Part shown: one piece after another, positions 297 to 23,424 of the stretch
Layout of the letters: each line of letters opens with the position of its first letter
Numbering within the stretch: position 1 is the first letter of the stretch
Assembly (NCBI GenBank): GCA_025936015.1
Contig: JAICUE010000001.1
Span: 1 to 24,713, forward strand
Length of the DNA stretch: 24,713 nt
Source: Gemmatimonadaceae bacterium
Lineage (GTDB): Bacteria > Gemmatimonadota > Gemmatimonadetes > Gemmatimonadales > Gemmatimonadaceae
Reading direction: 5' to 3'
Notes under the pieces: generated by a model
Database searches by the model: none
Seen by the model: only the letters and a program-made list of their open reading frames with translations
Told to the model about the DNA's origin: nothing
Made by a program: the position numbers and the translations under genes

Positions 297-1798
297 TGCG
301 CCTCGTAGATCCAGAAGGGGCGCGCGGCCATCGACCCCGCACGTTCCGCCGCGGCCCGCGTGGCGTAGGGCCCGAGCACGACGCGGTACATCGTCCGCCC
401 GGCGAGCGGAAACGTCGCGACGTGCGCGGGCAGTCCATCCACGTTCACGGTGGCTGCGTCCGTCTTTGCCTGCGCATCGCTCGTATGGGTAGCAAGCGAG
501 ACGAAGAAGCCGCGACTCGGGGCAGGGGGTGCGACCGGCTGTGCAGCGGGAGTGGGGGGCCGCGCCGTGTCGACGCGGGCCCCGATGAACGCGCCGGCCG
601 GGTCGACGACTGTATCGTTAGGCGGAGCTGGTCCGCTGACGGTGTCGGCCGGTGCGCTGTCGAAGTGGACGGGCGTATCGAGCGACGCGTCGCGCGGGCG
701 AAAGCCGTTCCACGAGACCAGCGCCCAGAAATCCTTCGCGCCGTCCTTGACCGTCTGCCCGGATTGGAAGGTGTCGCCGTCGACGAAGCGGACATCGTTC
801 CCCGCCGCGAGCGCGATCTTCCCGTCCGGTGCGACGAACGGCAGGTCGCTCCGCCATGCGGTCGCGACCGCGCCGAGCACGCGCTGCGACCCGACGGCGA
901 TCACCCATGCAGAGTCGCCGTCCGCTGGCCGAGCGAGCAGGTAGCGACCGAGTGGATCCATCCGGAGCGCAATCGCCTGACCCGGAAGCGCGACGACGTC
1001 GCCGCTCCCGCCGGTGTAGCGATCGAGCACACGCAGCTCCTTCTGGCCTCGCAGCAGCGTGTAGAGGCGATCGCCGCTCGGCGTCGGCGCGATGGCGACG
1101 ATCGTGGTATCGACAGTCACGACCGGCGTCGGCGCGAGATCGCGCCCGCGCACCGCGGCGATCGACGAGTCGTGCACGAGGACGACGCGATCGCCAGCCT
1201 GGACCGGGCGCGCCTTCGCGAAGCCGGCGACCACCGCGCTGTCGACGATGCGCGTGTCGGGGGGCCAGAGGTGCCAGAGCACCGAGTTGTTCCCACGGTC
1301 GGCGACGACGACGATCGAGCCATCGCCCTGCGGCATCAGCTCCCGGGCCCGGAGCGGCGCCTTGTAGCTCCATCGTCCCGTGGGGGTGAAGCGCGCTACG
1401 GTGCCGCTGTCGGTCACCCCGTAGACGGATTTGCCGTCGGAGGAGACGAGCGAGAGCAGCTTCGGCTTGCGCGTCGATGTAACGTCGCCCGCCCGGAGAT
1501 TCACCCGCACGAACGCGCCCTTGCTGTCGGCGAAAACCAGCTGCCCGGCATCCTCGTCGAAGGCGAGCATGTGGTCGGGCGCCGGTGCCTTCTCGCTCGA
1601 CGTCCAGACCGCCGAATCGACGTTCGGGTAGAGATAGGCGCGCGCGATCCCGCCGCCGCGCGCGATGCGCAGAACGACGGGGTCCGGGCCAGTGGCGCGG
1701 GTCAGTGAGGGGGTGGCCTCGTGCGTGGCGGGGTCATCCGGACGGTCCGAACGACCGCAGGCGACGAGCACGAGTGCCAACGCGAGCAGCGTGCGCAC
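293..1798 (-). CDS. Predicted lipoprotein with beta-propeller-like region, Pro-rich linker and C-terminal SPOR domain
   Basis: Signal peptide with lipobox LVAC, repeated beta-strand blades, a Pro/Ala-rich linker, and a SPOR-like C-terminus (FFVSLAT...YRVVLGPYATRAAAE). Confidence 0.8.
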   Translation of the reverse strand: MRTLLALALVLVACGRSDRPDDPATHEATPSLTRATGPDPVVLRIARGGGIARAYLYPNVDSAVWTSSEKAPAPDHMLAFDEDAGQLVFADSKGAFVRVNLRAGDVTSTRKPKLLSLVSSDGKSVYGVTDSGTVARFTPTGRWSYKAPLRARELMPQGDGSIVVVADRGNNSVLWHLWPPDTRIVDSAVVAGFAKARPVQAGDRVVLVHDSSIAAVRGRDLAPTPVVTVDTTIVAIAPTPSGDRLYTLLRGQKELRVLDRYTGGSGDVVALPGQAIALRMDPLGRYLLARPADGDSAWVIAVGSQRVLGAVATAWRSDLPFVAPDGKIALAAGNDVRFVDGDTFQSGQTVKDGAKDFWALVSWNGFRPRDASLDTPVHFDSAPADTVSGPAPPNDTVVDPAGAFIGARVDTARPPTPAAQPVAPPAPSRGFFVSLATHTSDAQAKTDAATVNVDGLPAHVATFPLAGRTMYRVVLGPYATRAAAERAGSMAARPFWIYEAQ

Positions 1799-1804
1799 GG
1801 ACAG

Positions 1805-1833
1805 AAGCTATCCGCTCAGCAGAGTGTGAACAA
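1805..1833 (-). promoter_or_regulatory. Sigma70-type promoter of the SPOR gene, positioned for a leaderless mRNA
   Basis: TTGTTC(1833-1828)-N17-TAGCTT(1810-1805), followed by 6 nt and then the GTG start at 1798. No Shine-Dalgarno sequence. Confidence 0.6.
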
Positions 1834-1846
1834 GCAGCCCAGCGGG

Positions 1847-1934: not shown

Positions 1935-4900
1935 TCAGAAGTTCGGGCCGATCGAGAAGACCCACAATGGCTTGTGGTCGATACTCACCGGCTTCGCATA
2001 ATCCCAGCGGAGCACCGCGTAGTTGAACAGGTTGACGCGCACCCCCACGCCGTAGCTGCGGTACGGATAACGAACGTTCGGGTTCGCCTGCGGATCCTTC
2101 GGCGCGCGCAGTTGCAGCGTGTTCTCCGCGCTCCAGGCGACGCCAGCGTCGTAAAAGAACGCGCCCTCGACGGGCGGCAGCGCGATCGGGAGGATGCCCA
2201 GCTCGAGCCGGTTGATCACCGGGAAACGCAGCTCGGCGTTGGCGACGGCGATGCGGCTGCCGAGCAGGCTCTGCGTGTTGCAGTTCGTCGTCACCGAACC
2301 GAATGCACCGCAGCTGTACGAGTAGAAGTTCTGTCGATCGTAGCCGCGGACATACTGCGGCAGGCCGATGTACTTGTACGCGAAGTGCTCATCGCGGCCG
2401 ACGGTGACGTCGGTCATGAACCGGGTCGCGACCGTCAGGAAGTTGAAGAGGATCGGATCATAACGGCGGTAGTCGGCGAGGTAGTCGATCCACTGCCAGC
2501 TGCCGAGCTGCGGCTGGACCTGGAAGCGATAGCGCCGGCCGGAGATCGGCCCGACGTAGCCCCAGAGCGCATTGTCCGAGACCCACGCGACGTTCGCCGA
2601 GTAGTTGTTGATCCCCGGCTGGTTGCGGATGTCGTCGAGATAGAAGCCGCTCGACGCCTGCTGCGTGTAGTCGATGAACCGATGCACGAACAGCGTCTGG
2701 CGATCGATGTTGCTGAATCCCGCGCCGAACTCGAAGCGCGTGAACCGGTTCACCGGATACATCCCGACGCCGAATGCCTCGCGGAAGATGTAGCGCGTGA
2801 TCTCCTGCTCCTCCGCCTGGATCGATCCGTCGTCGCTCGCGTCAACGAGTTGATCCCCGGTGAGGAAGTAGTACGGCTCCTGCGAGACGCCGGTCACGTA
2901 CTGGATTCGATGCCCGTAGTTCGCGTACGCGGTGTAGAGCTGCGCGTCGCTGAACCTCCCGTTTACCGCGGCGGCGAGCGCCAGTCGGTTGTTGCCGAGG
3001 AGGTCGCTGAGGATGATGGTCGTCCCGCCGAACACGCCGCGGCCGTAGTTGTCCTGCGCGTAGCCGACACTCGGCCGCGCAATGTAGTCCGGCTGGAAGC
3101 GGACCTTGTAGTCGCTGATCTTGAATGTGGCGGTGTCGGGCAGCGCGAGGTTCGCGCTGTCGAGAATCTGCGCCACCGTGATCGGGCGCCTGACGGTTTC
3201 GGCAGCGCCCGCGGCGACGGTCCCCGACGCGCGGAAGGTCGAGTTGCCGGACCGGTATGTCGAGACTCGCGACGCGACAGGCGTCGTGTCGAGTGCGGGC
3301 GACGCGGCGACCACATGCATCGAATCGCGTTGCGCGTTGAAGATCGGACCGGCGACCGGAGCCTGCTCGACGTATGGTTCGCGCTTCATCGCCCGGGGGT
3401 TGTTCATCCCCCAGATCGTGTAATCGCCGTCTTCGTAATACGTGAACGCGATCTTGTCCGCGCCACGCGCCCAGGTGATTGCCGGGCTGTACTCGGTGAA
3501 CGCGTTGATCGCGCTGATCACGTTCGTCAGCTGGTAGTGCTGCCGCGCCTCGAAATCGTAGAGGAACAGGTTCGAGATCCCGGTGCGATCCGAGAGGAAG
3601 ATCAGCGACTTCCCATCGGGCGCCCACTGCGGATTGAGGTTCAGTCCCGCCTGGCCGGGAATCACCGACACCTGCATCGACGCGAGATCGAGCAGGGTGA
3701 TTCGCCACTTGTTGAAGCGGAGCAGGTCGAAGTCCGTCTCGTCGCCGCGGTCGCTGACGAATGCGATCGTCTTGCCGTCCGGCGACCACTGCGGCTGGAG
3801 ATCGCCATAACGGTCCGCCGTCAGGCGGCGGAGGTTCTTGCCATCCGCGTCGACCATGTACAGGTCGGTGATCCCGCCCTCGTCCGCGCTGACGACGAGC
3901 CGCTTGCCGTCAGGCGACCACGATGGGCTGGTGACCCCTTCGATCCCCGGCAGCGAAAAGCGCCTGACCACACGCCGCTTCTTCACGTCGAGGATGTAGA
4001 GGACGTCCTTTCCTGCCCGCTGCGCGGTGAATGCGAGCTGGCGGCCGTCGGGAGAGAAGGAGCTCTGCGAATAGGCCATTCGCAGCTCCTCGAAATTCGG
4101 ATCGGTGGTGCTCTTCACGAGCCGCTTGATACGCTTGCCCGTCTGCGCGTCGGCGAGCCAGAGGTCGATGAACACCTGGCCGCGGAGGAAGCTGCCATTC
4201 GAGAGGAAGGCAATGCGCTTTCCGTCCGGGGAGAGCGCGGGCGCGACGAACACCTGGCCGCCGGTCTTTTTCTCGTTGAGGACCGGTTGGGCGAACCGGC
4301 GCGGCCGATCGAGCTGGGTGATGCCCGGGAGGAAGCGATCCTGCAGCGACTCCTTCCACTCCTGGCTCAGGTCGTCGAGGGAGAGACCGAGCTCGCGCTT
4401 GATCGCGCGCTCGTAGCCGACGTTAGGCGAGGCGCGCAGGATCTGGCCGATCGTCTCGTCACCCCAGCGCGCGCCGATGTACGCCCACAGCGACTCGCCG
4501 AAACGGTACGGGAAGTACCGGTCCGGCCGCTGCGTCATCTGCTCGATGCTCGGGATGTTTCCATTGAGCGCGGCGTCGCGCATCCACGAGTCGGTGAACG
4601 GATGATCGGGACCGATCGACAGGTACTCCGCCATTCCTTCGGCGAACCAGTCTGGCATCGGGTTCTGCGACAGTGCCTGCAGGCCGCCGCCCGCCTTGCC
4701 GCGGGCGAAGATGTCGTACTGGAACTCGTGCGTGAGCTCGTGCGTGAGCACGTGCTCGAAGCTCTTGTAGTCGCCGGTGAAGGGCAGGATGACTCGGTGG
4801 CGAAGCGGCTCGGTGACGCCGCCAACGCCTTCGCCCAGATCGCCCGTGACGTTGTTCTGCCCGAAGTCCGATCGCGAGGCGAAGAGCACGATCGGCTTCT

Positions 4901-5168
4901 TCTCGCGGAACTGATACCCGAGGACGCGCGACAGGCGCGCATACGCACGCTCCGCCATGCGAGCGGCGTCATAGACCGCCGTCTGCTCGCTCGGATAGTA
5001 GTGAATCAGGAAGTGCTCCGTCTCCATGACCTTCCAGTCGAAATGATCGTACTGGACCTGGTTCATGCCGAAGTATTCCTGTGCCTGCGCCGCGGGGGCG
5101 CTGAGCAGCAGACCAAGAGCGCCCGCACTGAGTGCGAGCGCGATGGGCATGCGGGAACGGGATGTCAC
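1935..5168 (-). CDS. Secreted fusion: zinc-peptidase-like domain + PD40/TolB-like beta-propeller + Omp85/BamA-type beta-barrel
   Basis: Start reassigned to GTG 5168 (AAGGAGG 6 nt upstream, GTGA overlap with the rsfS stop); ATG 5150 is an alternative. Signal peptide ending AQA, HELTH plus WFAEGMAEY, repeated PxxSPDG/WAPDG motifs, VRGY motif and C-terminal Phe. Confidence 0.85.
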   Translation of the reverse strand: MTSRSRMPIALALSAGALGLLLSAPAAQAQEYFGMNQVQYDHFDWKVMETEHFLIHYYPSEQTAVYDAARMAERAYARLSRVLGYQFREKKPIVLFASRSDFGQNNVTGDLGEGVGGVTEPLRHRVILPFTGDYKSFEHVLTHELTHEFQYDIFARGKAGGGLQALSQNPMPDWFAEGMAEYLSIGPDHPFTDSWMRDAALNGNIPSIEQMTQRPDRYFPYRFGESLWAYIGARWGDETIGQILRASPNVGYERAIKRELGLSLDDLSQEWKESLQDRFLPGITQLDRPRRFAQPVLNEKKTGGQVFVAPALSPDGKRIAFLSNGSFLRGQVFIDLWLADAQTGKRIKRLVKSTTDPNFEELRMAYSQSSFSPDGRQLAFTAQRAGKDVLYILDVKKRRVVRRFSLPGIEGVTSPSWSPDGKRLVVSADEGGITDLYMVDADGKNLRRLTADRYGDLQPQWSPDGKTIAFVSDRGDETDFDLLRFNKWRITLLDLASMQVSVIPGQAGLNLNPQWAPDGKSLIFLSDRTGISNLFLYDFEARQHYQLTNVISAINAFTEYSPAITWARGADKIAFTYYEDGDYTIWGMNNPRAMKREPYVEQAPVAGPIFNAQRDSMHVVAASPALDTTPVASRVSTYRSGNSTFRASGTVAAGAAETVRRPITVAQILDSANLALPDTATFKISDYKVRFQPDYIARPSVGYAQDNYGRGVFGGTTIILSDLLGNNRLALAAAVNGRFSDAQLYTAYANYGHRIQYVTGVSQEPYYFLTGDQLVDASDDGSIQAEEQEITRYIFREAFGVGMYPVNRFTRFEFGAGFSNIDRQTLFVHRFIDYTQQASSGFYLDDIRNQPGINNYSANVAWVSDNALWGYVGPISGRRYRFQVQPQLGSWQWIDYLADYRRYDPILFNFLTVATRFMTDVTVGRDEHFAYKYIGLPQYVRGYDRQNFYSYSCGAFGSVTTNCNTQSLLGSRIAVANAELRFPVINRLELGILPIALPPVEGAFFYDAGVAWSAENTLQLRAPKDPQANPNVRYPYRSYGVGVRVNLFNYAVLRWDYAKPVSIDHKPLWVFSIGPNF

Positions 5169-6301: not shown

Positions 6302-7396
6302 TTACTGAACCGGACGCGCCAGGCGGCGCCAATCGAACCAGGTGTCGGCGAGGCCGAGGAGCCCCGCCGCCGTAACGAGCGACAGCAAGCCCGACGTCGC
6401 GATGGTCTGCAGCATCGGGATCTGGGCGAGCAACACCGACAGCCCGACGAGAATCCACACGGTGCGCTGCGACAGCACCCATGAGATCACGCCGAGGCCG
6501 CGCAGTGCATAGAGCGAGAGAAAGAAGACGACGAGGTTGATGCCGAACGAATGCAGCATCCCGAACGCCGCGGCTCGCGCGGGCGCGACGGTCGGCAGGA
6601 GGAGCACCGTCAACCCGACGATGAGCCCCCACACCAGCTGGTCGTTGAAGCGGAACTCGCGGAGCGGAGCGACCGGTGGGCCGATCCGCGTCCGCGCCAA
6701 TCGGTGGTACAGCGCCCACGCCAGCGCGAGCGCGGCGAGCGATTGCAGCGCGAGCAGGGCGGGGAACGCGGTCGCGCCACCCTTCGAGACGGCGGTGAGC
6801 GCCTTCGAGAAATCATCCACCGGCGAGCGCCCCGCCGGGTACTGGCTGACGATCCGCGCCCAGGCCTCGGGCTCGGCGGTCGCCCAGCTGTCGAGCATCG
6901 CGCTCACCGATGCGTTCCGGGTGCGGAGCTCGCCGGCCACCACGTCACCGACCACGCTGGTCGGCGCCCGGAGCGCGGTGGTGATGCCTAACGCGGCGAC
7001 GAGCGTCATCGCCACCGCCGACAGCGCGCGGGCGAACAGCGGGCGGCGCGTATCGACGAACGCGAGGACGCCGAACGCTCCCGCGAGGATGATCGACCAC
7101 GCGCGCAGCAGCGTGCCGTAGGCGCCCCACGTCCCGCTCCGCGCGCCGGCGAAGAGCGTGAACGCGGCGATCGCGATCCAGAACACTGCGAGCGACGCCC
7201 GCCCGCCGGCCCACCAGCCGAGCAGCGTGCAGGTGGCGAGCGCGGGAACGAGGAGCAGCCACCCCTCGGTCACCGGCAGCAGTGCGCCCGCGACGGGAAT
7301 CGCGGGAACGAGCAGGAACGCCGCGAGAGCGAGGAGGACACCAGCCCATCCGTGCTCGCGCGGCGCCGCCTGAACGTTAGGCGCTGCGTCGGTCAT
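6302..7396 (-). CDS. Multi-pass membrane protein, DUF2232/YybS-like
   Basis: Many hydrophobic segments, motifs LREFRFNDQLVWGL and LGLADTWFDWR, and the usual position between rpsR and rplI. Confidence 0.8.
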   Translation of the reverse strand: MTDAAPNVQAAPREHGWAGVLLALAAFLLVPAIPVAGALLPVTEGWLLLVPALATCTLLGWWAGGRASLAVFWIAIAAFTLFAGARSGTWGAYGTLLRAWSIILAGAFGVLAFVDTRRPLFARALSAVAMTLVAALGITTALRAPTSVVGDVVAGELRTRNASVSAMLDSWATAEPEAWARIVSQYPAGRSPVDDFSKALTAVSKGGATAFPALLALQSLAALALAWALYHRLARTRIGPPVAPLREFRFNDQLVWGLIVGLTVLLLPTVAPARAAAFGMLHSFGINLVVFFLSLYALRGLGVISWVLSQRTVWILVGLSVLLAQIPMLQTIATSGLLSLVTAAGLLGLADTWFDWRRLARPVQ

Positions 7397-7417: not shown

Positions 7418-7648
7418 TCAGCCCTGGTGTCCCTTGATGTACGGGACGAGGGCGAGGTAGCGCGCCCGCTTCACGGCGGTCGCGAGCTGGCGCTGGTGAC
7501 GGGCGCAGACGCCGCTCAACCGGCTGGGAAGGATCTTCCCCTGCTCGGTGATGAAGCGGCCTAACGTCCGATCGTCCTTGTAGTCGACGTGGCGCACGCG
7601 TGTCTCGCAGAAGGGACACGTCTTGGTGGGACGGCGCATCATCTTCAT
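7418..7648 (-). CDS. rpsR: 30S ribosomal protein S18
   Basis: CPFC...VDYKD...[39 protein letters not shown] (Cys-retaining form). ATGA overlap with rpsF; the start could instead be 7642 or 7639. Confidence 0.97.
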
Positions 7649-8196: not shown

Positions 8197-9312
8197 CTAG
8201 AAGCCTGCGCCGGCGCCGCCGGTCGCCCCGACGTGCGACGCGGCCGCGGCCATCGACACCGCCGTGATCGCCGCCAGCGACCCGGCGAGGAAGAGGTAGA
8301 GCGCCACCATCGGCTTGTCGCTCTTCTCCGCCGGCTTGCCGATCGCGGCCATCAGCGCGGTCACGCCCGCCAGCAGCATCAGCAGCCCCTGCGCGTGTGC
8401 GTCACCCTTGTAGTGCAGGACGACCGTGATCGCGCCTAACGCGACGGCGACGGACCAGCGATCGACGCGGGTGAGCGAGGTGAACCCGCGCGCCCCGTCC
8501 AGCGTCCAGACCGGGATCAGGTTGAAGATGTTGATCCACGCGCCGACGCCGGCGATCGCGGCGATCAATGGAACCCCGGTCGCGAGATAGGCGATGTAGA
8601 ACGCGAGCGCGGTGCCGAGCCCCCAGACCGGACCGGCGAGGCCGATGCGCGCGTTGATGCGCACGTCGGTCACCCGCTCCTTCAGCAGGATGAACGCGCC
8701 GATGAACGGGATGAAGACCGGCGCGCTCGCCTTCAGCCCGAAGCGCCGCGCAGCGACGACGTGTCCCATCTCGTGCAGGTAGATCGAGACCACGAACCCC
8801 GCCGCGAACTTCCAGCCGTACATCGTCCAGTAGACACCGAAGAACGCGACCATCGAAAGGAGCGTCTTCAGCTTCGTCAGCCCGAGCAGGACGAGCTTCG
8901 CCTTGGCAAGGACGAGAAAGAGGATCGTCTTGAACTTGATGAGCAGCGCGCCTAACGCGGCGAGCGCGCCCTTGCTTCGCCAGGTCTCGCGGACGCCGGG
9001 CTGCTTCGCCCGCGCGCCGCCGTCCTTCGCCCCCGCGCCGCCGACGAGACGGTCCTGCAGCGCGGTGACGCGAGCGTCGATCGCCGCGCGCTGCGGAGCG
9101 CGTGGCGGCAACAGGTCGAGCGCGGCCTTCCATGTCGTCAGCGCGGCCGACAGGTCGCCCTGGCGCTCCGCCTCCTGCGCGACGCCGGCCAGCCTTGTGA
9201 GCTCGGCTGCATGGACGAGCGATCCGCAGCTCGGGCAGGCGCGAAGCGCGAGTGGCACTTCGACGCCGCACGTGGCACACGACGCAGCCTGTGGACGCGC
9301 GGACGAGGTCAT
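8197..9312 (-). CDS. Site-2 (M50) intramembrane metalloprotease with N-terminal Zn ribbon and TPR-like helices
   Basis: HEMGH, AGP and NLIPVWTLDG motifs; N-terminal CATC...CPSC followed by AERQGDLSAALTTWKAALDL. Confidence 0.9.
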   Translation of the reverse strand: MTSSARPQAASCATCGVEVPLALRACPSCGSLVHAAELTRLAGVAQEAERQGDLSAALTTWKAALDLLPPRAPQRAAIDARVTALQDRLVGGAGAKDGGARAKQPGVRETWRSKGALAALGALLIKFKTILFLVLAKAKLVLLGLTKLKTLLSMVAFFGVYWTMYGWKFAAGFVVSIYLHEMGHVVAARRFGLKASAPVFIPFIGAFILLKERVTDVRINARIGLAGPVWGLGTALAFYIAYLATGVPLIAAIAGVGAWINIFNLIPVWTLDGARGFTSLTRVDRWSVAVALGAITVVLHYKGDAHAQGLLMLLAGVTALMAAIGKPAEKSDKPMVALYLFLAGSLAAITAVSMAAAASHVGATGGAGAGF

Positions 9313-9339: not shown

Positions 9340-10197
9340 TCAGGCGACCGGCGGTGCGCCGGTCGCGCCCTGGAGACGGAACGGGCCGCTCACCGTGATC
9401 GACTCCCCGCCGCGATTGAACTTCCACGCGCGATACAGTGCGTACCCGATGAACAGCCCGGAGATCGGGCTCGTCATCGCGACGAGAATCGGTGCAGTGA
9501 ACAGTCCGGCAACGATGGCGATCAGGATCACCGACAGCGGCATCTTGAAGTTCTTCAGCTTCGCCGCGCGATCCTGCGCCCGCGTCACTGCGACCAGCGC
9601 CGCCGAATCGAGCGGAGCATCCGCACCATTCGCCTGTTTGATCGAATCCACAGTCGCCTGCGCCTGGGCACTGAACTTCGCCCGCGCCGCGTCCGCGCCC
9701 TTGCCCGCTCCGGCCATCATGAACGGCATGTAGGCGCCGGCCATCGCGAACCAGGTGAGCGCGAGCGCCACTACCTGGAACTTCCGTCCGCCGTGACCAT
9801 TGCCGCCGATGTTCACCGCCTTGCCGACGCCGAGGCCGACGAGGCCCGTGAGCAGCGCCCACTCGATGCCGGTCGCCTTCGTGAAGGCGTAGTAGGCTGC
9901 CGCGCCGACAATCGCGGCACCGAGGCCGAAGGCGATCGCTCGCGCGAGCCCCGCGGCGCTCGTTCCACCCTGGACCTTCGCCTCCGCGGCGAACCGGCAC
10001 TTCGCACAGGCGATCTTGTCGTTGACCATGTGGTACGAGCCACGCAGCGCGGTGCCGCAGAGCAGGCAGTGCGCCGCGCCCGGCGCGGCGCTGGCATCGA
10101 ACGTCAGTGGCTCGAACTGCGAACTGGCGCGGGGATCGGTCGCGTCGTTAGGCATGTGCGTGGCGCTGAGGTGGTCCTGAGGGGCCAGCAGGTACAT
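9340..10197 (-). CDS. Hypothetical membrane protein with N-terminal Cys4 zinc-binding motif
   Basis: CLLC...CAKC followed by about 4-5 hydrophobic segments. The start may be 10155 (MPND). Confidence 0.8.
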   Translation of the reverse strand: MYLLAPQDHLSATHMPNDATDPRASSQFEPLTFDASAAPGAAHCLLCGTALRGSYHMVNDKIACAKCRFAAEAKVQGGTSAAGLARAIAFGLGAAIVGAAAYYAFTKATGIEWALLTGLVGLGVGKAVNIGGNGHGGRKFQVVALALTWFAMAGAYMPFMMAGAGKGADAARAKFSAQAQATVDSIKQANGADAPLDSAALVAVTRAQDRAAKLKNFKMPLSVILIAIVAGLFTAPILVAMTSPISGLFIGYALYRAWKFNRGGESITVSGPFRLQGATGAPPVA

Positions 10198-10469
10198 ACA
10201 TGGACGCCTCGGCGTGCCTCACCGCAACGGCCGAGCCCGGCGTCCGGCTCCGAGGCCGGGGGTCCTGACGCACCCGGTGCGTGGGTGCCTAACGGGCCCC
10301 CTGTCATGGTTCGGGGGACTCGCGCCAGGAGCGTGGACCGGCGCGCGTCGCGCGATCGAGAGCGCGGTTTCGGCATCGCCGCACCGATCCTGGATTAGAT
10401 TGTCTTCATTTAGTAACAATTCGTCACAACGCCTGCGCTCCCGCATGTGATACGCGAGATTACACGGTT

Positions 10470-11193: not shown

Positions 11194-12294
11194 CTAGACG
11201 TTGAACCGGAACAGCATCACGTCGCCGTCCTTCACCACGTATTCCTTTCCCTCGCTCCGCACGACGCCCTTGTCCTTCGCGCCCTTCCATCCGCCGTTGC
11301 CGACGAAGTCGGAATACCCCACGGTCTCGGCGCGAATGAACCCACGCTCGAAATCGGTGTGGATCACCGCGGCGGCCTTCGGCGCGGTGTCGCCGCGATG
11401 GATCGTCCAGGCGCGGACCTCCTGCTCGCCGGCGGTGAAGTAGGTCTGCAGCCCGAGCAGGTGGTAGCTGGCGAAGATGAGCCGGTCGAGCCCCGCCGAC
11501 TCGATGCCTAACGACTGGAGGAACTCGGCGCGGTCCGCCGTCGGGAGCTCGGCGAGCTCGGCTTCGATCTTCGCCGAGAACGGGACGACTTCGGCGTCCT
11601 CGCCGCCGGCGGCGACCGCGGCGCGCAGCGCCTGCAGGTACTTCCCTTCGGTCCCGGAGAGCTCGGCGTCGGTGACGTTCGCGGCGTAGAGCACCGGCTT
11701 CACCGTGAGCAGGGCGAGCGGCTGGAGCTGGGCGCGCTCGTCGGTGCTCAACTCGAGCGACCAGAGACCCTTGCCCTCGGACAGCTGCTTGTGCGCCTTC
11801 TCGAGCACCGGCAGCTCGCCTAACGCTTCCTTGTCGCCGGTCTTCGCGGTGCGCCGCGTCTTGTCGAGGCGCTTCTCGACGACGGCGAGGTCGGAGAGGG
11901 CGAGCTCGAACTCGATCACCTCGCGGTCGCGCGCCGGATCGACCCCGCCCATGACGTGGGTGACGTCGGGGTCGTCGAAGCAGCGGACCACGTGGACGAT
12001 CGCGTCGGTCTCGCGGATGTTCGCAAGGAACTTGTTGCCGAGCCCCTCGCCCTCGGCCGCCCCCTTCACGAGGCCGGCGATGTCGACGAACTGGACGACG
12101 GCGGGCACCGTCCGCTTCGGCTGGACGACGTCGGCCAGCTTCGGCAGCCGCGGGTCGGGCACCTCGACCATCCCGACGTTGGGCTCGACGGTGCAGAACG
12201 GATAGTTCGCCGCCTCGGCGCCGGCGGCGGTGAGGGCGTTGAAGAGCGTTGATTTGCCGACGTTAGGCAGGCCGACGATTCCGAGCTTGAGCAT
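11194..12294 (-). CDS. ychF: Redox-regulated ATPase YchF
   Basis: GIVGLPNVGKSTLFNALT, NYPFCT, DIAGLVKGA, C-terminal TGS domain (DFERGFIRAE, EGKEYVVKDGD). Confidence 0.98.
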   Translation of the reverse strand: MLKLGIVGLPNVGKSTLFNALTAAGAEAANYPFCTVEPNVGMVEVPDPRLPKLADVVQPKRTVPAVVQFVDIAGLVKGAAEGEGLGNKFLANIRETDAIVHVVRCFDDPDVTHVMGGVDPARDREVIEFELALSDLAVVEKRLDKTRRTAKTGDKEALGELPVLEKAHKQLSEGKGLWSLELSTDERAQLQPLALLTVKPVLYAANVTDAELSGTEGKYLQALRAAVAAGGEDAEVVPFSAKIEAELAELPTADRAEFLQSLGIESAGLDRLIFASYHLLGLQTYFTAGEQEVRAWTIHRGDTAPKAAAVIHTDFERGFIRAETVGYSDFVGNGGWKGAKDKGVVRSEGKEYVVKDGDVMLFRFNV

Positions 12295-12384: not shown

Positions 12385-12978
12385 CTACTGGCCCCTGGCT
12401 CCCGGCGCCCCGTTGTACTTGTTCATTGCGGCCGTCGCCCCGTCGGCGATGAACGTCTCGACGGCGGCGCGGATGGTCGGCATCAATTCGTCGATCACCT
12501 GCTGCTCGGTCTTGCCGAAAGCGCCGAGGACGAAATCCGAGAGGTCGCCGATCGTGCGCTGCTCCTCGAGCGGCTTGATCCCGATCCGCAGGCGGGGATA
12601 GTCGCGCGACTCGAGGTGGTGCTCGATGCTCTTCAGGCCGTTGTGACCGCCGGCGCTTCCGTTCGCCCGCACGCGGATGCTGCCTAACGGCAGGGCGACC
12701 TCGTCGACGACCACGAGCAGGTCCTTGGCCGCTGCCCAGAATGGCCGCCGCAGCCACGGCTTGAGCACCTGCCCGCTGAGGTTCATGTAGGTCAGCGGCT
12801 TGACGAGACGGGTCGCCGCGCCGTTCACCGTTCCGCTCGAGGTCAGCGCCTCGCCATCCTTTCGCCAGCTGGAGAAATGCCAGACGTCGGCCAGGTGGTC
12901 GAGGACCATCCAGCCGACGTTGTGTCGAGTGTGCTCGTACTCGCGCCCCGGATTGCCGAGGCCAAGGATGACCTTCAC
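12385..12978 (-). CDS. pth: Peptidyl-tRNA hydrolase
   Basis: Start taken as GTG 12978: KVILGLGNPGREYEHTRHNVG, KPLTYMNLSG, GSAGGHNGLKSI, YPRLRIGI. Confidence 0.97.
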   Translation of the reverse strand: MKVILGLGNPGREYEHTRHNVGWMVLDHLADVWHFSSWRKDGEALTSSGTVNGAATRLVKPLTYMNLSGQVLKPWLRRPFWAAAKDLLVVVDEVALPLGSIRVRANGSAGGHNGLKSIEHHLESRDYPRLRIGIKPLEEQRTIGDLSDFVLGAFGKTEQQVIDELMPTIRAAVETFIADGATAAMNKYNGAPGARGQ

Positions 12979-15058: not shown

Positions 15059-15964
15059 TCAGCCGGGATCGACCCCGACCAGCGGAACTTCCTCGAGCGT
15101 CGTCGTCGCGAGCGCTCGGCAGCCGGTCGCCTGCGCCACGGCGCGCAGCTGCAGCTCGTCCTCGAACAGGGCGAACAGGGTCGAACCCGAGCCGCTCATC
15201 CGCGCGACCGCGACCCCTTCGACCGATCCGAGCCGCTCGTATATCGCCGCGAGCTCGGGGCGCTGGTCGAACACCACCGGCTCGAAATCGTTCATCGAGA
15301 GCCGCGCGACACCCTCCCAGGTCGTCACGGCGGCGAGGGGATGCAGGGCCGCAGCGTGCGGCTGGTCGGTCAGCGCCGAGCGCGAGGCGGCAAGCCAGCT
15401 GTACGCTTCGGCGGTGTTCACCGGCTGCGCGGGAAGCACCAGTGCGACGTCGCGAACCGGGAGCGCGGGAAGCGCGAGCATCCGGTCGCCGCGTCCCCAC
15501 GCCAGCGCGAGCGGCGCTTCGCTGGCGAGGAACGGGACGTCCGCGCCTAACGTTCCGGCGATCGCGAGCAGGTCGGCCGCCGGGAGCGGTCGCGGATTGA
15601 GCGCGTTGAGCGCACGCAGCACCGCGCCCGCATCCGCACTCCCGCCACCGAGCCCGCCGCCGACCGGGATCCGCTTCTCGATCTCGATCGCGAAGCCGCG
15701 CGGCCAGTTGTCGTGCGCCGCATAGGCGTCGGCCGCCCGCCAGGCGAGATTCTGCTCCGGCGCGCCGAGCCCCGCGTCCGGCAGCGCGTCACCGGTGATG
15801 GTGAGCGACCGATCGGCGGAATCGCCGACGCGAACCACGACATCGTCGGCGAGCGCGATCCGGCAGAACAGCGTCTCGATGTCGTGGAAGCCCGACGCTT
15901 CGCGCGCGAGGATGCGGAGCGCGAGGTTGATCTTCGCGAACGCCGCGACGCGAGCCGCCGGCAT
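15059..15964 (-). CDS. ispE: 4-diphosphocytidyl-2-C-methyl-D-erythritol kinase
   Basis: AFAKINLAL, KRIPVGGGLGGGSADA, LGADVPF, MSGSGST. Confidence 0.97.
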   Translation of the reverse strand: MPAARVAAFAKINLALRILAREASGFHDIETLFCRIALADDVVVRVGDSADRSLTITGDALPDAGLGAPEQNLAWRAADAYAAHDNWPRGFAIEIEKRIPVGGGLGGGSADAGAVLRALNALNPRPLPAADLLAIAGTLGADVPFLASEAPLALAWGRGDRMLALPALPVRDVALVLPAQPVNTAEAYSWLAASRSALTDQPHAAALHPLAAVTTWEGVARLSMNDFEPVVFDQRPELAAIYERLGSVEGVAVARMSGSGSTLFALFEDELQLRAVAQATGCRALATTTLEEVPLVGVDPG

Positions 15965-15970
15965 CGCTGC

Positions 15971-16978
15971 CTAACGCTCCGCCGCGGCGCCGAGGTCGCC
16001 CATCTTGAGGCCGAGCTGGGCGAAGTAGACCGCGCCGATCAGCGTGATCGGGATGAAGCTGAGGATGTGGAAGCCGATCGCCCAGGCCACCGCGAGGTCG
16101 GGCCCGACACCGTACACAGCGAGGCTTTCCTTGGCGATCGCCTCGAAGACGCCGAAGAACCCCGGGGCCGATGGGATCGCGACGCCGATCGCGATGATCC
16201 CCTGCACGAAGAACGCGGCGGAGAATGGGACGACGATGCCCACCGCCTTGAAGCCGAGCCAGAAGGCGAAGGCGTTGCAGAGCCAGTGCAGGACGGTCCA
16301 GAAGAGCACCGCGACGAACCGGCGCGGTGCACGGAGGACGCTCAAGCCGCTGGCGAAGGCAAGCAACGCGTCGCGTCCGCGCGCTTCGAGCTTCGGGGCG
16401 AGCCGCCTGACGACGACTTCGTACAGGGTGAACACGCGCGCGGGAAAGAGCACGAGGGCGTACAGCACGGCGAGCAGCGCGAGGACGGCGATGATTCCGC
16501 CCCCCGCCCAGTTCGCGACCGGCTGGCTCGCGATGCGCGTGCCAGTGGGAAAGGCCGGGTCGAGCATCGCGAGGAACAGCATCACGAGGATGACCACCGC
16601 GTCGAAGACGCGGTCGACCGCGATCGACGCAAAGGCCGCGGCGAAACCGACCTTGGGCTCCTCGGAGCTGAGCGCATACGCGCGCGCCAGCTCACCGGCG
16701 CGGGCCGGGACGATGTTGCCGATCATCATCCCGATCGCCGTCGCCCGCCAGAGCTCGCCTAACGGCAGCTTCGGCGCGATCGGGTCGAGGATGACGCGCC
16801 AGCGAATCGCCCGCAGCGGGAAGATCGCCGTCGCGGCGATCGTCGACAGCGCGAAGAGCAGGATGTTCGACTGCTCGAGCGTCCCGGCGACGACGCGGAA
16901 GTTGACGTCGTGCAGGGCGTAGACGAGCAGGGCGATGCTGAGCGCGATCCCGATCGCGCCCCGCCAACCGAGCTTCAT
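15971..16978 (-). CDS. Lysylphosphatidylglycerol-synthase TM domain / UPF0104 (flippase-like) membrane protein
   Basis: LRAIRWRVIL, PARAGELARAY, ASIAVDRVFD, IPSAPGFFGVFE; about 8 hydrophobic segments. Confidence 0.85.
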   Translation of the reverse strand: MKLGWRGAIGIALSIALLVYALHDVNFRVVAGTLEQSNILLFALSTIAATAIFPLRAIRWRVILDPIAPKLPLGELWRATAIGMMIGNIVPARAGELARAYALSSEEPKVGFAAAFASIAVDRVFDAVVILVMLFLAMLDPAFPTGTRIASQPVANWAGGGIIAVLALLAVLYALVLFPARVFTLYEVVVRRLAPKLEARGRDALLAFASGLSVLRAPRRFVAVLFWTVLHWLCNAFAFWLGFKAVGIVVPFSAAFFVQGIIAIGVAIPSAPGFFGVFEAIAKESLAVYGVGPDLAVAWAIGFHILSFIPITLIGAVYFAQLGLKMGDLGAAAER

Positions 16979-16997: not shown

Positions 16998-18551
16998 TCA
17001 CTCGGTCGCGGCCAGCTCGAGCAGGTCGTAGATCTCCGACAGCTCGTCGGGCGACGGCGTGCGCGCCGCGCCGCGCACTTGGCTGCCGAGGGCGCGGGCG
17101 CGGTCGAGCGCGGCGCGCCCGCGGAACAGCAGGCTCTCGATCGGGACGAGCTGCTCGTCGACGATCGGCACCGCCGCGCTCAATGGGCGCTGGGTGAGCC
17201 GCGCGCCTAACGCGCTGATCCCGGTGTCGAGCAGGGCGGCGAGGTCGCGCCCGGTCGGGGTCCGGGTCGATCGCCGGACGTTAGGCAGCATCGGGCTCGG
17301 CGCCGGCGCGGCGTGGGGCGCCATTGCCGGCGCCGGCGCCGCCACGCTCGACGGCGCGCCGCGGAGGCCGGCCAGCTGCTGGGCGAGCTGGTCGCTCCGC
17401 GAATTGGGATCGGCCAGCAACGCCGACACCTGGCGCATCGCGCCTAACGCGCTGGGCTCGAGCGCGGCGACCGCCGGCGCCATCCGGGCGATCCAGGCCG
17501 AGACGTCGCGCTCGCCGAAGCTGTCGGCGGCCGCGCCTAACGCGCGGAGGGCGCCGCGCAGCTCGCGCGACAGCCGGTCGCGCCCGGCGATGTCCGCCGC
17601 GACCTGCGCTTCGCTCACCAGCCGCAGCAGGTGCTCGGCCTGGCTCACCGCCTCGAGCCGGAAGCGCTGGCTCGGCGTCGTCGGCGGATTCGGCGCCGTG
17701 TCGACGAGGTGCGGGCCGTTGTCCGCGTAGAAGAGGTCGGCGATCGGGACGATCGGCGCGCTCTCGGCGGTCGCCTCGTCGAGGGCGGCCGCGGCCGCGG
17801 TGAAGCGCTGCACCTCGGGGGACGCGGGGTCGGGACGGCCAATGCTCCGCAGCTCGATCGCCGCCCGGCGCAGCAGGGTGCTCGCCGCCTGGAAGAGCGC
17901 GAGCTGCTGCGGCGTCGGCACCGGATTCGACGTCAGCTCGAGCGGCTTGCCCGCGCGGTCGAGCGCGTCGACGACGTCGGCGAGCGGCGGCAGGTCGCGC
18001 GTCGCCGCGACACCGCGCAGGCCGCGCACTCGCGCGAGCAGGCCGCCGAGCAGCGCCGAGTCGCCGGGATGCGCGAGAAACTGGTCGAGGGAGACGGCGA
18101 TCTCGGCCGCTTCGTTCGCGAGGAACGCGCTCCCACCGGCCGCCGCCGACGGAGTGTTGCTCCGCGCGAGCTGCGGCGCGTAGCGCGCGAGCTCGGAGCT
18201 GCGCGCCTGCGCGCGCTGATCTTCACTCGGCCCCCACGCGCGGACGCCGTGCACGAGCACCTTGAGATCGTCGACCGCGGAGGTGAGCGCGGATCGCAGA
18301 CCCGGCTCCCAGAGCAGCGTCCCCTCGCGGAGCGCGCGTCCCACTCGCTCGATCCCGGCCGCGACTTCGGCGACACCGGGGAGCTTCGTCATCGTCGCGC
18401 TGCCGCGCAGCATCCGCGCGCCGCGGGCGAGCGCTTCACCGTCGGCGCCGCTGTTGCCCGCGGCATTGAGTACTCCATCGAGCTGCTCGATGTAGTCGCT
18501 CGCCTGGAGCACGAAGAGCTCGACGACGCCGGTCGGATTCGGGCTGGTCAT
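16998..18551 (-). CDS. Helical protein with three Hpt/CheA-P1-like modules lacking the phospho-acceptor His
   Basis: F..EA-type starts at residues 13, 143 and 297, with cores ARMLRGSA, VRGLRGVA and LRALGAAA against the Hpt consensus HxLKGxA. Confidence 0.7.
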   Translation of the reverse strand: MTSPNPTGVVELFVLQASDYIEQLDGVLNAAGNSGADGEALARGARMLRGSATMTKLPGVAEVAAGIERVGRALREGTLLWEPGLRSALTSAVDDLKVLVHGVRAWGPSEDQRAQARSSELARYAPQLARSNTPSAAAGGSAFLANEAAEIAVSLDQFLAHPGDSALLGGLLARVRGLRGVAATRDLPPLADVVDALDRAGKPLELTSNPVPTPQQLALFQAASTLLRRAAIELRSIGRPDPASPEVQRFTAAAAALDEATAESAPIVPIADLFYADNGPHLVDTAPNPPTTPSQRFRLEAVSQAEHLLRLVSEAQVAADIAGRDRLSRELRGALRALGAAADSFGERDVSAWIARMAPAVAALEPSALGAMRQVSALLADPNSRSDQLAQQLAGLRGAPSSVAAPAPAMAPHAAPAPSPMLPNVRRSTRTPTGRDLAALLDTGISALGARLTQRPLSAAVPIVDEQLVPIESLLFRGRAALDRARALGSQVRGAARTPSPDELSEIYDLLELAATE

Positions 18552-19931: not shown

Positions 19932-19941
19932 CCTCTTCGCA

Positions 19942-20900: not shown

Positions 20901-21872
20901 ATGCCTCAAGCCCTCGCCGGTCTGCGGTTCCCGCACGAGCGCATCCTCCTGCCGCGGACCAAGCTCGCTTACGTACATCTCCGCAACCTGCTCACCGACG
21001 CCAAGCGCGAACGGGCAGCGCGCGTGTATGGCTACGTCGCGATCTGGCTGCCCGAGGAGCTGGTGCTCCTGTACCTCCAGGAAGGAGAGCTCGTCAACGC
21101 GACGACGCTGAGCCCCGCGGGGGCCACGGTCGTCCCCATCGCCGACGCGCTCGACAAGGTGCCCCCCGAGCCGGAGTACGGGGAGATCTGCTTCCACGAA
21201 GCCGACGACGAGCAGCTCGCGTGCATGCACTACGCGCACGTCGTCGGCGAGGAACCGTGGCCCGACGAGCTCAACCCGCTCGACCCGCACGCGCTCTTTC
21301 CCTACCTGCTGGCGACCACCTTCGACGGGACCCTCGAAGTCACCCTCGACGGTAACATCAACTACCTGATCGTCCGCGACGGAATGGTCGAGCGCGCCTT
21401 CCTCTCGAGCGTTCACTTCGGTGAGCTCGATGAGAAGATCGAGGCGATCTTTCGCCCCGATGGCCGCGCGTCGCGCATGGGCGTCAGGCGCTTTCCCGTT
21501 CCGCCGCCGGTGCCGAGCCAGGCACCGCCGGCGCTCATCCACGCCTACCGCGAGCTGGTCAACGGTCTCGTGCGCGAGCTCATCGGACAGGGGAAGGACA
21601 GTGCGCCGGTCATCGCCGAGCTCGCGCGCCAATCGCTCGCATCGACGCACGCGCCGCTGCACTCCTTCACCGCGATGGATCGGCTGGTCCACGACCCGGT
21701 CGCCGGCGTCGACGAGCTCACCGACGCGGTCGCCGCGTGGATCACCGAAGTCCTCTGGGCCGCCGCCGACACCGACGGCGGGCCGGAAGCGATCCTGCAC
21801 AAGCTCACCCACGAGCGCCGGCACATGTTCCAGAGCGCCGGGCTGTTCGAGCGCCTCCCCTGGCAGATGTGA
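20901..21872 (+). CDS. Hypothetical protein, possibly two DUF4388/PatA_N-like modules
   Basis: Segments LVLLYLQEGELVNA and FDGTLEVTLDGNINYLIVRDGMVERA. The start is ATG 20901 or GTG 20826. Confidence 0.7.
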   Translation: MPQALAGLRFPHERILLPRTKLAYVHLRNLLTDAKRERAARVYGYVAIWLPEELVLLYLQEGELVNATTLSPAGATVVPIADALDKVPPEPEYGEICFHEADDEQLACMHYAHVVGEEPWPDELNPLDPHALFPYLLATTFDGTLEVTLDGNINYLIVRDGMVERAFLSSVHFGELDEKIEAIFRPDGRASRMGVRRFPVPPPVPSQAPPALIHAYRELVNGLVRELIGQGKDSAPVIAELARQSLASTHAPLHSFTAMDRLVHDPVAGVDELTDAVAAWITEVLWAAADTDGGPEAILHKLTHERRHMFQSAGLFERLPWQM

Positions 21873-22708
21873 CCGACTCGGGCGGCGAGCGTGGCGCGCT
21901 CTACGTCGTGAGCACGCCGATCGGAAATCTCGCCGACATGACGCTGCGCGGGCTCGACACGCTGCGCACGGTTTCGGTGGTGCTGGCCGAGGACACGCGG
22001 CACTCGCGCAAGCTCCTCGAGCACTTCGAGATCACGACGCCCCTCGTTGCGCATCACGAGCACAACGAAGCGAAGACGACGCCCGCCCTCGTCGCGCGGA
22101 TGGAGCAGGGCGAGTCGATGGCGATCATCACCGACGCCGGAACGCCGCTCGTCTCGGATCCCGGCGCGCGTCTCGTCGCTGCCGCGATCGCGGCGGGGGT
22201 TCGCGTCATCCCGATCCCCGGGGCGTCGGCGGTGCTGGCGGCGCTCGTCGCGGCCGGTCTCCCGGCGCATCGCTTCACCTTCTTCGGCTTTCTCGAACGG
22301 AAGGGCAGGGAGCGCGAGCAGGCGATCCTGACGATTCGCGGACTTGGCCACGCCGCGGTCGTCTACGAATCTCCGAATCGTCTCGCCGACACGCTCGCCG
22401 ACTTGCGCGACGGCGGACTCGGCGCTCGGCGCGCGGCCGTCGCCCGCGAGCTGACCAAGCAGTTCGAGGAAGTCCGCCGGGGAACGGTGGAGGAGCTCGC
22501 GCGGTACTACGCGGATGCATCGGCCCGTGGAGAGATCGTGATCGTGATCGAGGGCACGGCGTACGAGGCGCCGAGCGAGGACGCACTCCGCGAGCGCGCG
22601 CGCGCGCTGCGTGCGACCGGCGCATCGGCGCGCGACGTCGTCAGCGCATTGACGGAGGAGCTCGGCGCGCCGCGCAACGTCGCGTACCGGCTCGCGCACG
22701 AGCCGTGA
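21869..22708 (+). CDS. rsmI: 16S rRNA C1402 2'-O-methyltransferase RsmI
   Basis: GTG 21869 overlaps the upstream TGA; LYVVSTPIGNLAD, AEDTRHS, TDAGTPLVSDPG, YESPNRL, ARELTKQFEE, RGEIVIV. Confidence 0.96.
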   Translation: MTDSGGERGALYVVSTPIGNLADMTLRGLDTLRTVSVVLAEDTRHSRKLLEHFEITTPLVAHHEHNEAKTTPALVARMEQGESMAIITDAGTPLVSDPGARLVAAAIAAGVRVIPIPGASAVLAALVAAGLPAHRFTFFGFLERKGREREQAILTIRGLGHAAVVYESPNRLADTLADLRDGGLGARRAAVARELTKQFEEVRRGTVEELARYYADASARGEIVIVIEGTAYEAPSEDALRERARALRATGASARDVVSALTEELGAPRNVAYRLAHEP

Positions 22709-23424
22709 TCCGCCGCGCGATAGCGTTAGGCCTGACGTGGTGCGCGCTGTCGGCGGTCGCGCCGGTGCCGGCGCACCGGGCGAGCGGTATCGCGCGACCG
22801 GAGCTGACGATCGCCCGGCTGCAGTACGATGGTGGCGGCGACTGGTATGCAAACCCATCGAGCCTGCCGAACCTGCTCGCGGCGATCGCCGACCGAACGA
22901 CGCTCCACGTCGCGAAGGAAGAGGCACGCGTGACCCCGCTCGACGCGCGGCTCGCCGATTTCCCGTTCATCCACGCCACCGGACACGGCACGATCCGCTT
23001 CTCCGACGAGGAGGCCGCCCGGATGCGCGAGTACCTGCTCGGTGGCGGCTTCCTCCATGTGGACGACAACTACGGGCTCGATGCGAGCTTCCGCGAGGCG
23101 GTGAAGAAGATCTTTCCGGACCGCCAGCTCGTGGACGTGCCGCTCTCGCATCCGATCTATCACATCGTCTACGACATGCCTAACGGCATCCCGAAGATCC
23201 ACGAGCATGATGGAAAGCCGGCGCGTGGGTTGGGGATCTTCGTCGGCGACCGGCTGGTGCTGTACTACAGCTACGAGAGCGACCTGGGAAACGGCTGGGA
23301 GGATCCGGCGACGTACGGCGATCCCCCGGCGCTCCACGAGGCGGCGCTGCGGATGGGCGTGAACCTTTTCGTCTACGCGGTGACCAGCAGCGCGAACGGC
23401 ACGAAGCCGGTGGCCGAGCGGTGA
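22705..23424 (+). CDS. Secreted DUF4159-domain protein
   Basis: GTG 22705 (GTGA overlap); signal peptide, then IARLQYDGGGDWYANP, YLLGGGFLHVDDNYG, DLGNGWED, ALRMGVN. Confidence 0.88.
   Translation: MIRRAIALGLTWCALSAVAPVPAHRASGIARPELTIARLQYDGGGDWYANPSSLPNLLAAIADRTTLHVAKEEARVTPLDARLADFPFIHATGHGTIRFSDEEAARMREYLLGGGFLHVDDNYGLDASFREAVKKIFPDRQLVDVPLSHPIYHIVYDMPNGIPKIHEHDGKPARGLGIFVGDRLVLYYSYESDLGNGWEDPATYGDPPALHEAALRMGVNLFVYAVTSSANGTKPVAER

Follow-up and report, generated by a model that had tools for sequence, protein, structure and literature searches.

To our knowledge, only two proteobacterial families have an established sequence-specific self tag for DNA uptake. The Pasteurellaceae carry the uptake signal sequence (USS), with the core AAGTGCGGT, and the Neisseriaceae carry the DNA uptake sequence (DUS), GCCGTCTGAA and its dialects, which is read by the minor pilin ComP. 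Chi (GCTGGTGG), the FtsK-orienting polar sequences (KOPS) and the SpoIIIE recognition sequences (SRS) are further words over-represented in resident DNA. Cyanobacterial HIP1 (highly iterated palindrome 1; GCGATCGC) is 15- to 300-fold over-represented, and its function, which has been linked to gene transfer or transformation, is still debated (PMC4390886, PMC5861425, PMC13756078). The attC and attI sites of integrons share a conserved AAC/GTT triplet, genomic attG sites can receive cassettes, cassette recruitment is fed by natural transformation, and class 1 attC and attI oligonucleotides show GTTAGGC-type ends (PMC12614218). Here we describe a non-palindromic octamer, CGTTAGGC, that occurs 22 times in a 24,713-nucleotide stretch of an uncultured soil Gemmatimonadaceae bacterium (GenBank assembly GCA_025936015.1, contig JAICUE010000001.1, positions 1 to 24,713; hereafter the window) and pervades the rest of the genome, and which we tentatively regard as a self tag of the uptake-sequence kind.

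Like DUS and USS, CGTTAGGC is a short non-palindromic word present at approximately 0.8 copies per kb in both orientations without polarity, lies in coding sequence in the least harmful frames at the cost of some amino acid changes, and is spaced more evenly than chance. Its single-mismatch forms are much rarer, with tolerance at the outer positions, and it is clade-specific, has flank dialects, is absent from some apparently foreign DNA and is present in resident phages. Unlike DUS and USS, each of which belongs to one family, this core occurs in two phyla and, among congeneric species, is switched on in some and off in others; it is not concentrated as inverted terminator pairs, close pairs being depleted; and its core equals the R' box of attC. 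With HIP1 it shares the length, the over-representation, the embedding through codon choice, the quasi-regular spacing and the variability among lineages, and its genus has a candidate orphan-like N6-adenine methyltransferase, detected in all 12 genomes and in none of the other motif-rich genera searched. HIP1, however, is palindromic and overlaps the sites of known methylases, whereas CGTTAGGC is asymmetric (reverse complement, GCCTAACG), and its candidate methylase is not seen to accompany it in other rich lineages. Over seven to eight bases it matches the R' end of attC in this order exactly and fits the attC/attI core GTTRRRY, but R'' and L boxes, a hairpin and an array are all lacking around the dispersed copies, their abundance does not track the integron integrase IntI, and the GTT triplet is violated in a tolerated variant, CGTCAGGC. 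Chi, KOPS and SRS resemble it in being non-palindromic octamers enriched in resident DNA, and differ in that CGTTAGGC has no replication-linked strand bias, is enriched by one to two orders of magnitude more, and shows interference between opposite orientations.

The genome (hereafter G000; C numbers denote contigs and L numbers loci) is assembled into 587 contigs totaling 3.17 Mb, with 86% completeness and a GC content of 67.7%, instead of the approximately 70% assumed in a first-pass annotation of the window. It contains 2613 copies of CGTTAGGC (1264 and 1349 on the two strands, 0.82 per kb), which is the top 8-mer of the genome by observed/expected ratio, at 22 times the expectation from base composition. 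The density of 824 per Mb compares with 2.9 per Mb in 0.68 Mb from motif-poor relatives, a 281-fold difference. A recount of the window reproduced all 22 exact copies at the positions first reported (7 on the plus strand and 15 on the minus strand), whereas dinucleotide-preserving shuffles averaged 0.32 copies and gave at most 4, and agreed that 22 of the 23 TTAGG pentamers lie within complete octamers, the odd one being at 18563. When synonymous codons were shuffled within each gene, so that all protein sequences and the codon usage counts of the gene stayed unchanged, 33 ± 4 sense copies were expected and 1576 observed (48-fold), and 32 ± 6 antisense copies were expected and 625 observed (19-fold). 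The genome-wide excess over a codon-preserving null and the rarity of single-mismatch variants, both named in the first-pass annotation as checks on its proposal, were thus borne out, the variants being far less frequent than CGTTAGGC. The objection that the word might be an assembly artefact fails, because it was found in 12 of 12 assemblies of the same genus and in Logan contigs from soil metagenome runs, which reproduce the window's copies exactly; in a variant soil strain among these contigs, the intergenic copy is intact despite differences on both flanks. As a side observation, the palindrome ATCGCGAT and its relatives GATCGCGA and TCGCGATC reach 16 to 17 times the expectation in G000 when judged against base composition alone, an excess that is probably codon-driven in this high-GC genome.

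The placement of the copies shows how they are accommodated in genes. Coding and intergenic DNA do not differ in word density, both having 0.77 copies per kb, and the third positions of codons coincide with word positions 2, 5, and 8 in whichever orientation the word is read. The word encodes 1524 of the 3126 [STPA]-Leu-Gly tripeptides of the genome (49%) in the sense orientation and 553 of the 886 Pro-Asn-Gxx sites (62%) in the antisense orientation, so that on either strand the sites that could accept it are close to saturated. Genome-wide, 1524 of 1849 TTA codons lie inside the word, as do 153 of 646 TAG stops (24%) and 47 of 255 TAA stops (18%); approximately 200 genes of G000 terminate within it. 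The similar saturation on the two strands and the equal intergenic density favor a pressure on double-stranded DNA over one on mRNA or translation. The DNA-level process that the first-pass annotation had proposed therefore stands, as a strand-symmetric process working against codon bias, and of the analogies it had drawn, that with DUS and USS fits best.

Recognition of the word appears to be graded, as the enrichment of variants indicates. The outer-position variants GGTTAGGC, TGTTAGGC, and CGTTAGGG are 9-, 7-, and 18-fold more frequent than controls, respectively, and a second driven variant, CGTCAGGC, has 1347 copies in G000 (6 times the controls). This variant forces rare codons: TCA makes up 22% of Ser codons in its context versus 4% overall, and CCT makes up 46% versus 5%, suggesting that position 4 of the tag tolerates C. 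By contrast, the position 5 neighbors CGTT[CGT]GGC are depleted to 0.27 to 0.73 times the control. In the flanks of intergenic copies, T is avoided at positions -2 (3%) and -1 (7%), and a purine stands at position +9 in 88%. The effective word in G000 is VV-CGT[T>C]AGGC-R.

Orientation tracks gene strand alone: 72% of genic copies are in the sense direction, whichever strand the gene is on. Once gene strand had been conditioned on, there was no over-dispersion among contigs (sum z²/df = 0.95, p = 0.61), adjacent copies in opposite-strand genes lay on the same strand in 94 of 231 cases versus 93.8 expected, and orientations are mixed along the 99-kb contig G019:C1 of another genus. The first-pass annotation had noted that strict replichore polarity would point to a Chi- or KOPS-like element; no polarity was found, and the dispersion test rules out this explanation. 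GC skew gave a rho of 0.03 with orientation, a value that is uninformative since skew is uncorrelated with gene strand as well; the shortness of the contigs is a caveat to the polarity result. The spacing of copies was compared with a null in which word status was re-dealt among all potential coding sites. Gaps shorter than 100 bp numbered 51 versus 121 ± 9 expected (z = -7.7), and those shorter than 200 bp numbered 158 versus 244, with direct, convergent, and divergent close pairs reduced to 0.44, 0.44, and 0.31, respectively; gaps of 300 to 1200 bp showed a 1.2-fold excess. Copies therefore interfere with one another within approximately 150 to 300 bp, whatever their orientation. Such mutual repulsion cannot arise from a mutational or repair bias acting site by site, whereas a benefit conferred per DNA segment can give rise to it.

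Comparison with relatives suggests how copies arise. Orthologs lacking the word carry other residues at many of the window sites, and the word has altered conserved amino acids, from ALA to ALG in YchF and from PFG and PVG to PLG elsewhere. Genome-wide, [STPA]LG is 19% more common than in controls, and [STPA]VG and [STPA]FG are rarer. Precursors coded by CTG (two transitions away) are depleted by approximately 82% and those coded by CTC (one transition and one transversion away) by approximately 35%, a pattern consistent with point mutations of the ordinary kind that were then fixed with a bias. G005, of the same genus, is syntenic over the whole window at approximately 80% nucleotide identity, shares 8 of 21 aligned sites with it, and has 8 sites of its own. 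Of the word sites in YchF within the genus, one is present in all members, two are patchy, and one is confined to this genome; in G019, the YchF copy lies at a different codon. Gain of the word is thus continuing, independently in each lineage. Concerted conversion of several bases was considered and set aside: sites that are not shared differ by 1 to 5 bases from the same-genus ortholog at approximately 80% identity, which is indistinguishable from stepwise change.

The word is distributed patchily. All 12 searched genomes of the same genus contain 1000 to 3500 copies each, and 39 of 401 evenly sampled genomes of the order Gemmatimonadales have 400 or more, the maximum being 7821 copies in 6.1 Mb (G371). 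Enrichment was seen in approximately 20 of approximately 105 sampled genera across all three families. In genus g44, five genomes (G136, G168, G224, G292, and G391) have 3200 to 4100 copies, whereas two (G164 and G411) have 66 and 8; counts in genus g21 range from 8 to 835, and g23 likewise shows a contrast of rich and poor genomes. Outside the phylum, 1 of 301 sampled genomes of Verrucomicrobiota is rich (G718, 2140 copies), and the 81 sampled genomes of its family form a gradient from 18 (G742) to 4562 copies, most of them above a reversed-word control. The unpublished genomes G018, G275, G720, G725, and G732 enter these tallies as rows only and are the basis of no conclusion. The flanks form a dialect, with T at position -1 in 83% of the sites of G718 versus 7% of the intergenic sites of G000. 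Words with other cores in loci L023, L010, and L016, considered as possible dialects, proved to be local tandem repeats and not genome words. In the literature searched, CGTTAGGC is not described as a genome word: a full-text search for the octamer returned primers only, and we found no paper on a Gemmatimonadetes uptake sequence and none that ties Gemmatimonadetes integrons to the word.

Mobile and apparently foreign DNA was also surveyed. Scanning IMG/VR for two copies 400 to 430 bases apart matched cassette arrays and genuine word-rich phage records. Among the latter, G798 has 31 copies in 17 kb and encodes both terminase subunits, large and small, and G799, a 98%-complete record of 44 kb in which a search for a tyrosine integrase found none, has 29 copies; the reversed-word control gave 1 to 3 copies in each. 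In the word-rich phage record L199 (IMGVR_UViG_3300049057_000028), several copies lie exactly between a ribosome-binding site and the ATG (GGAGCCTAACGATG). Four contigs of G000 of 5 to 7 kb lack the word; C547 encodes a large serine recombinase together with the reverse transcriptase of a group II intron, and C104 encodes a SusC/SusD pair at 61.8% GC and is possibly bin contamination. In G019, which averages 1.25 copies per kb, the word is missing from 8 kb of C1 (82.5 to 90.5 kb; L118:2484-10466), where ordinary accessory genes for a two-component system, a TonB-dependent receptor, a NUDIX protein, and a cytochrome c are found and no mobile-element signature was detected.

In cassette arrays of Gemmatimonadales, classical attC sites have at their R' end (C-G|TTAGGC) the same bases as the octamer, an identity seen in 30 aligned sites; the octamer contains GTTAGGC, which fits the core GTTRRRY. 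These sites run from an R'' box (GCCTAAC) through L'' and L' to the R' end and are very uniform, at 95 to 140 nt. In motif-poor relatives, most copies of the word share one orientation at intervals of approximately 550 to 600 bp, being attC R' ends. At least 34 cassettes lie on the single contig G027:C95, further arrays are present in G025, G032, and G037, and a covariance model built from these sites found arrays in many genomes of the order; no Rfam family matched them. The array loci L081 to L085 of motif-poor Gemmatimonadales comprise G027:C95:1-30000, G025:C3, G027:C80, and G027:C43. Genes for IntI (TIGR02249, over the cut-off) were detected in 27 of 41 relatives, including G000 (C205), a frequency far above that usual for bacteria, as well as in 49 of the 81 genomes sampled from the verrucomicrobial family, where many of these genes carry a single in-frame stop codon (TGA, TAG, or TAA) and may be pseudogenes. 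However, IntI is neither necessary nor sufficient for an abundance of the word. It was present in 87 of the 301 sampled Verrucomicrobiota, of which one is motif-rich; no profile match was found in the richest genomes, G767, G755, G791, and G792; the gene of G019 is in three frameshifted pieces; and the IntI contig of G000 lacks GTTAGGC. In the flank logo of the dispersed copies, neither R'' nor L boxes are conserved, and a partner for a hairpin is absent. Searches of G000 for attC-like pairs by regular expression and folding found none, and the attC covariance model R1 found none among 101 candidates scored. IntI was accordingly rejected as the reader, its presence not tracking abundance in either phylum. 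The identity with the attC R' core extends over all 8 bases and occurs in clades unusually rich in integrons.

G000 has a single PF01555 methyltransferase, encoded at G000:C342:2330-3232 (L092, plus strand), with a DPPF motif and similarity to M.RsrI (1e-27). It faces a convergent 397-residue ORF without a family match (L092 3327-4517, minus strand), and a gene for an Nth-like glycosylase (L092 260-847, minus strand) lies two genes away. Judging from sequence, the methyltransferase and the ORF could be an unrecognized restriction-modification pair, or the enzyme could be an orphan methylase. Searches of G000 with PF00145 and PF02384 gave no matches, and no C5 methyltransferase was found (Vsr was not searched for). 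Orthologs of the PF01555 enzyme with 79 to 88% identity are present in 11 of 11 other genomes of the genus, and one (63% identity, in the motif-poor G026) occurs among the 29 genomes of other genera searched. At a threshold of 1e-20, none was found in the motif-rich G019, G015, G024, G036, and G040, and the sole PF01555 match of G019 is an unrelated SPP-type enzyme. A search for an avoided word that might mark the methylase site gave nothing clear, just a general depletion of TTAA-containing words. The methyltransferase was rejected as a general reader, being genus-specific and not tracking the word in other rich genera. Competence genes were likewise rejected as a discriminator between rich and poor genomes, being near-universal in the order: ComEC is encoded on G000:C1 and in 383 of 401 genomes, and all 41 relatives have ComEA-type HHH_3 domains. 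Each of the 18 genomes that lack ComEC is motif-poor, so that the uptake model withstood this attempt to falsify it, in a test of low power, with P approximately 0.16 by chance.

We tentatively read CGTTAGGC as a genome-wide, uptake-sequence-like self tag spread by transfer-biased drive, a reading that falls just short of probable; that the bias lies at transfer or uptake, and what kind of reader imposes it, we infer. Its abundance, strand symmetry, saturation, protein cost, graded recognition, even spacing, turnover, dialects, and absence from some foreign DNA, the properties that could be tested, all match those of a DNA uptake sequence. A sequence-specific reader would act on double-stranded DNA fragments, most likely within a pathway that imports DNA or transfers it in some other way. 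Alleles carrying the word would then be copied into the chromosomes of other cells more often than word-less alleles, so that point mutations creating the word, transitions first, would be fixed preferentially. Fixation would go on until most sites tolerated by the proteins were filled, and a second copy close to an existing one would add no gain. Several points weigh against this proposal. We know of no uptake, receptor, or competence demonstrated in the phylum, the organism being known from metagenome-assembled genomes alone. ComEC and ComEA-type genes are found equally in motif-poor relatives and so do not explain the on/off pattern. The word is present in phage records at a host-like or higher density, which is not predicted by uptake alone; the interference length of approximately 150 to 300 bp is below typical uptake or recombination tracts; and for one 8-mer to be present in two phyla, the reader must be shared or have been transferred. 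The phage enrichment, the short interference length, and the two-phylum core keep other explanations alive. If the self-tag reading is true, biased gene flow shapes genomes, and even proteins, far more widely than thought, and the tag would mark resident versus newly acquired DNA, for use in binning and in linking phages to hosts in soil metagenomes. The on/off pattern between sister species offers many independent contrasts for finding the reader by comparative genomics.

The phage records at or above the host level, the regularized spacing, and the apparently foreign contigs without the word would all fit an intracellular self tag, Chi-like without polarity, in which a nuclease or recombination machine spares or repairs word-bearing DNA and degrades DNA without the word, so that selection favors its presence in chromosomes, plasmids, and phages alike. 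We consider this unlikely, because strand polarity is nil whereas every known Chi is co-oriented with replication, opposite orientations interfere equally although Chi-type orientations serve different break ends and should not, the enrichment and the alteration of proteins go far beyond any known Chi, and no cognate enzyme was identified. The exclusion zone of approximately 150 bp, independent of orientation, and the excess of gaps of 300 to 1200 bp could instead reflect the sites of an abundant DNA-binding protein, such as a nucleoid organizer or a condensin-like or repair loader, with weak selection on each site and exclusion between neighbors. Genes and spacers are equal in density, as such a protein would have it, and phages could exploit the same protein; yet a housekeeping organizer should not switch on and off within a genus, as in g44, g21, and g23, no candidate protein is known, and thousands of very weakly selected sites would be hard to keep without drive, leaving this explanation a slim chance. 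About equally slim is a methylation-linked word, for which the RAATTY system of Campylobacter is a precedent: an orphan methyltransferase would mark an adenine of the word, and the methylated word would be read in repair, transformation, or replication. The lone PF01555 enzyme, with no recognizable restriction partner and with orthologs throughout the genus and in 1 of 29 genomes outside it, speaks for this, as does the precedent of HIP1 (PMC4390886, 10.1101/2024.09.10.611283). Against it, the word is non-palindromic, the other motif-rich genomes searched yielded no ortholog, that of G019 having only its unrelated match, and the motif-poor G026 has a homolog; since one genus amounts to one phylogenetic event, the correlation may be pure descent.

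Integrons provide a further candidate, in that the dispersed copies might be R-box sites for IntI, for example landing sites for cassettes, or might have been spread by it. The identity with the attC R' end and the unusual frequency of IntI in both motif-rich clades recommend this idea, which is nevertheless very unlikely: apart from the failure of IntI to track abundance and the missing R'', L, and hairpin elements, the driven variant CGTCAGGC breaks the GTT triplet required by the integrase, insertion into essential genes would be harmful, and there is no mechanism by which recombination would create the word. Lowest in probability, and by our estimate scarcely credible, is a local mutational or repair bias toward the word, of the very-short-patch kind and without function. 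It would account for the strongest depletion falling on precursors one transition away, and the glycosylase gene near the methyltransferase is in keeping with it. However, it predicts independent sites, whereas copies repel one another to approximately 300 bp (z = -7.7); it needs GC-to-AT changes in a 68% GC genome, as well as amino acid changes; and no C5 methyltransferase was found. An extension of the self-tag reading would make the word a cross-phylum tag, with a reader shared or exchanged among soil Gemmatimonadales, the verrucomicrobial family, and phages, and with a functional identity to attC R'. Cassettes would then ride the same recognition system, or the reader would descend from, or co-operate with, the DNA-recognition module of the integrase. 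This extension is improbable; if true, it would tie the specificity of DNA uptake to the traffic of integron cassettes.

Genes of the window were called with a codon-likelihood caller trained on G000, and these independent calls matched the frame tally of the first-pass annotation: 13 copies read xCG-TTA-GGC, 7 read G-CCT-AAC-G in antisense, 1 forms a stop codon, and 1 is intergenic. The copies reported in the P-loop of YchF and in the small gene at 7421-7648 are also real, and the annotation's description of the copies proved right in all details that were checked. From the left end, the copy at 616..623 (+) is antisense to the gene at 296-1798 (-), reading G-CCT-AAC-G within PPND, and that at 4421..4428 (+) is antisense to the gene at 1938-5150 (-), where it gives SPNV in place of VPS, VPT, or VPN in orthologs. 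The gene at 6305-7396 (-) has a sense copy at 6986..6993 (-; GCG-TTA-GGC, ALG), common to G005 and G008, and an antisense copy at 7375..7382 (+; APNV). In the small gene at 7421-7648 (-), the sense copy at 7559..7566 (-) reads ACG-TTA-GGC (TLG), for which orthologs have ACG-CTC-GGC. Two sense ALG copies lie in the gene at 8200-9258 (-), at 8434..8441 (-) and 8950..8957 (-); the latter is the same in G008 and differs by 1 base in G005. The copy at 10146..10153 (+), antisense to the gene at 9343-10197 (-), encodes MPND, and G005 reads CGTTCGGC there. The intergenic copy is at 10287..10294 (-) and is unchanged in the soil strain, whose flank differences are at 10285 and 10296.

YchF (11197-12294, -) has three copies. 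The sense copy at 11506..11513 (-; TCG-TTA-GGC, SLG) is present in 5 of 5 same-genus orthologs compared, the Leu codon being CTC, CTG, or CTT in the other aligned Gemmatimonadaceae orthologs. The sense copy at 11818..11825 (-) reads GCG-TTA-GGC (ALG), for which relatives that are 93% identical have GCA-CTG-GCC (ALA); this amino acid change was seen in this genome alone in the YchF alignment. The antisense copy in the P-loop, at 12261..12268 (+), reads CTG-CCT-AAC-GTC (LPNV) and is present in L001 and not in G005 or G008.

At higher coordinates than YchF, the gene at 12388-12978 (-) has a sense copy at 12682..12689 (-; PLG, with PVG in most orthologs), and the gene at 15062-15964 (-) has one at 15545..15552 (-; TLG). 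The copy at 15969..15976 (-) supplies the stop codon (CGT-TAG-GC) of the gene at 15974-16978 (-), which also has a sense copy at 16757..16764 (-; PLG), where orthologs have a conserved PFG (TTC to TTA, Phe to Leu). Four copies lie in the gene at 17001-18551 (-): three sense ALG copies at 17205..17212 (-), 17442..17449 (-), and 17535..17542 (-), the second of which corresponds to ALD, ALE, or ALA in orthologs, and an antisense LPNV copy at 17279..17286 (+). Finally, the gene at 22705-23421 (+) has a sense copy at 22724..22731 (+; ALG) and an antisense copy at 23178..23185 (-; MPNG), where orthologs have LPRG or FPAG. The window also contains a tRNA gene at 14924-14994 (-), matched by Rfam RF00005 with 63 bits.

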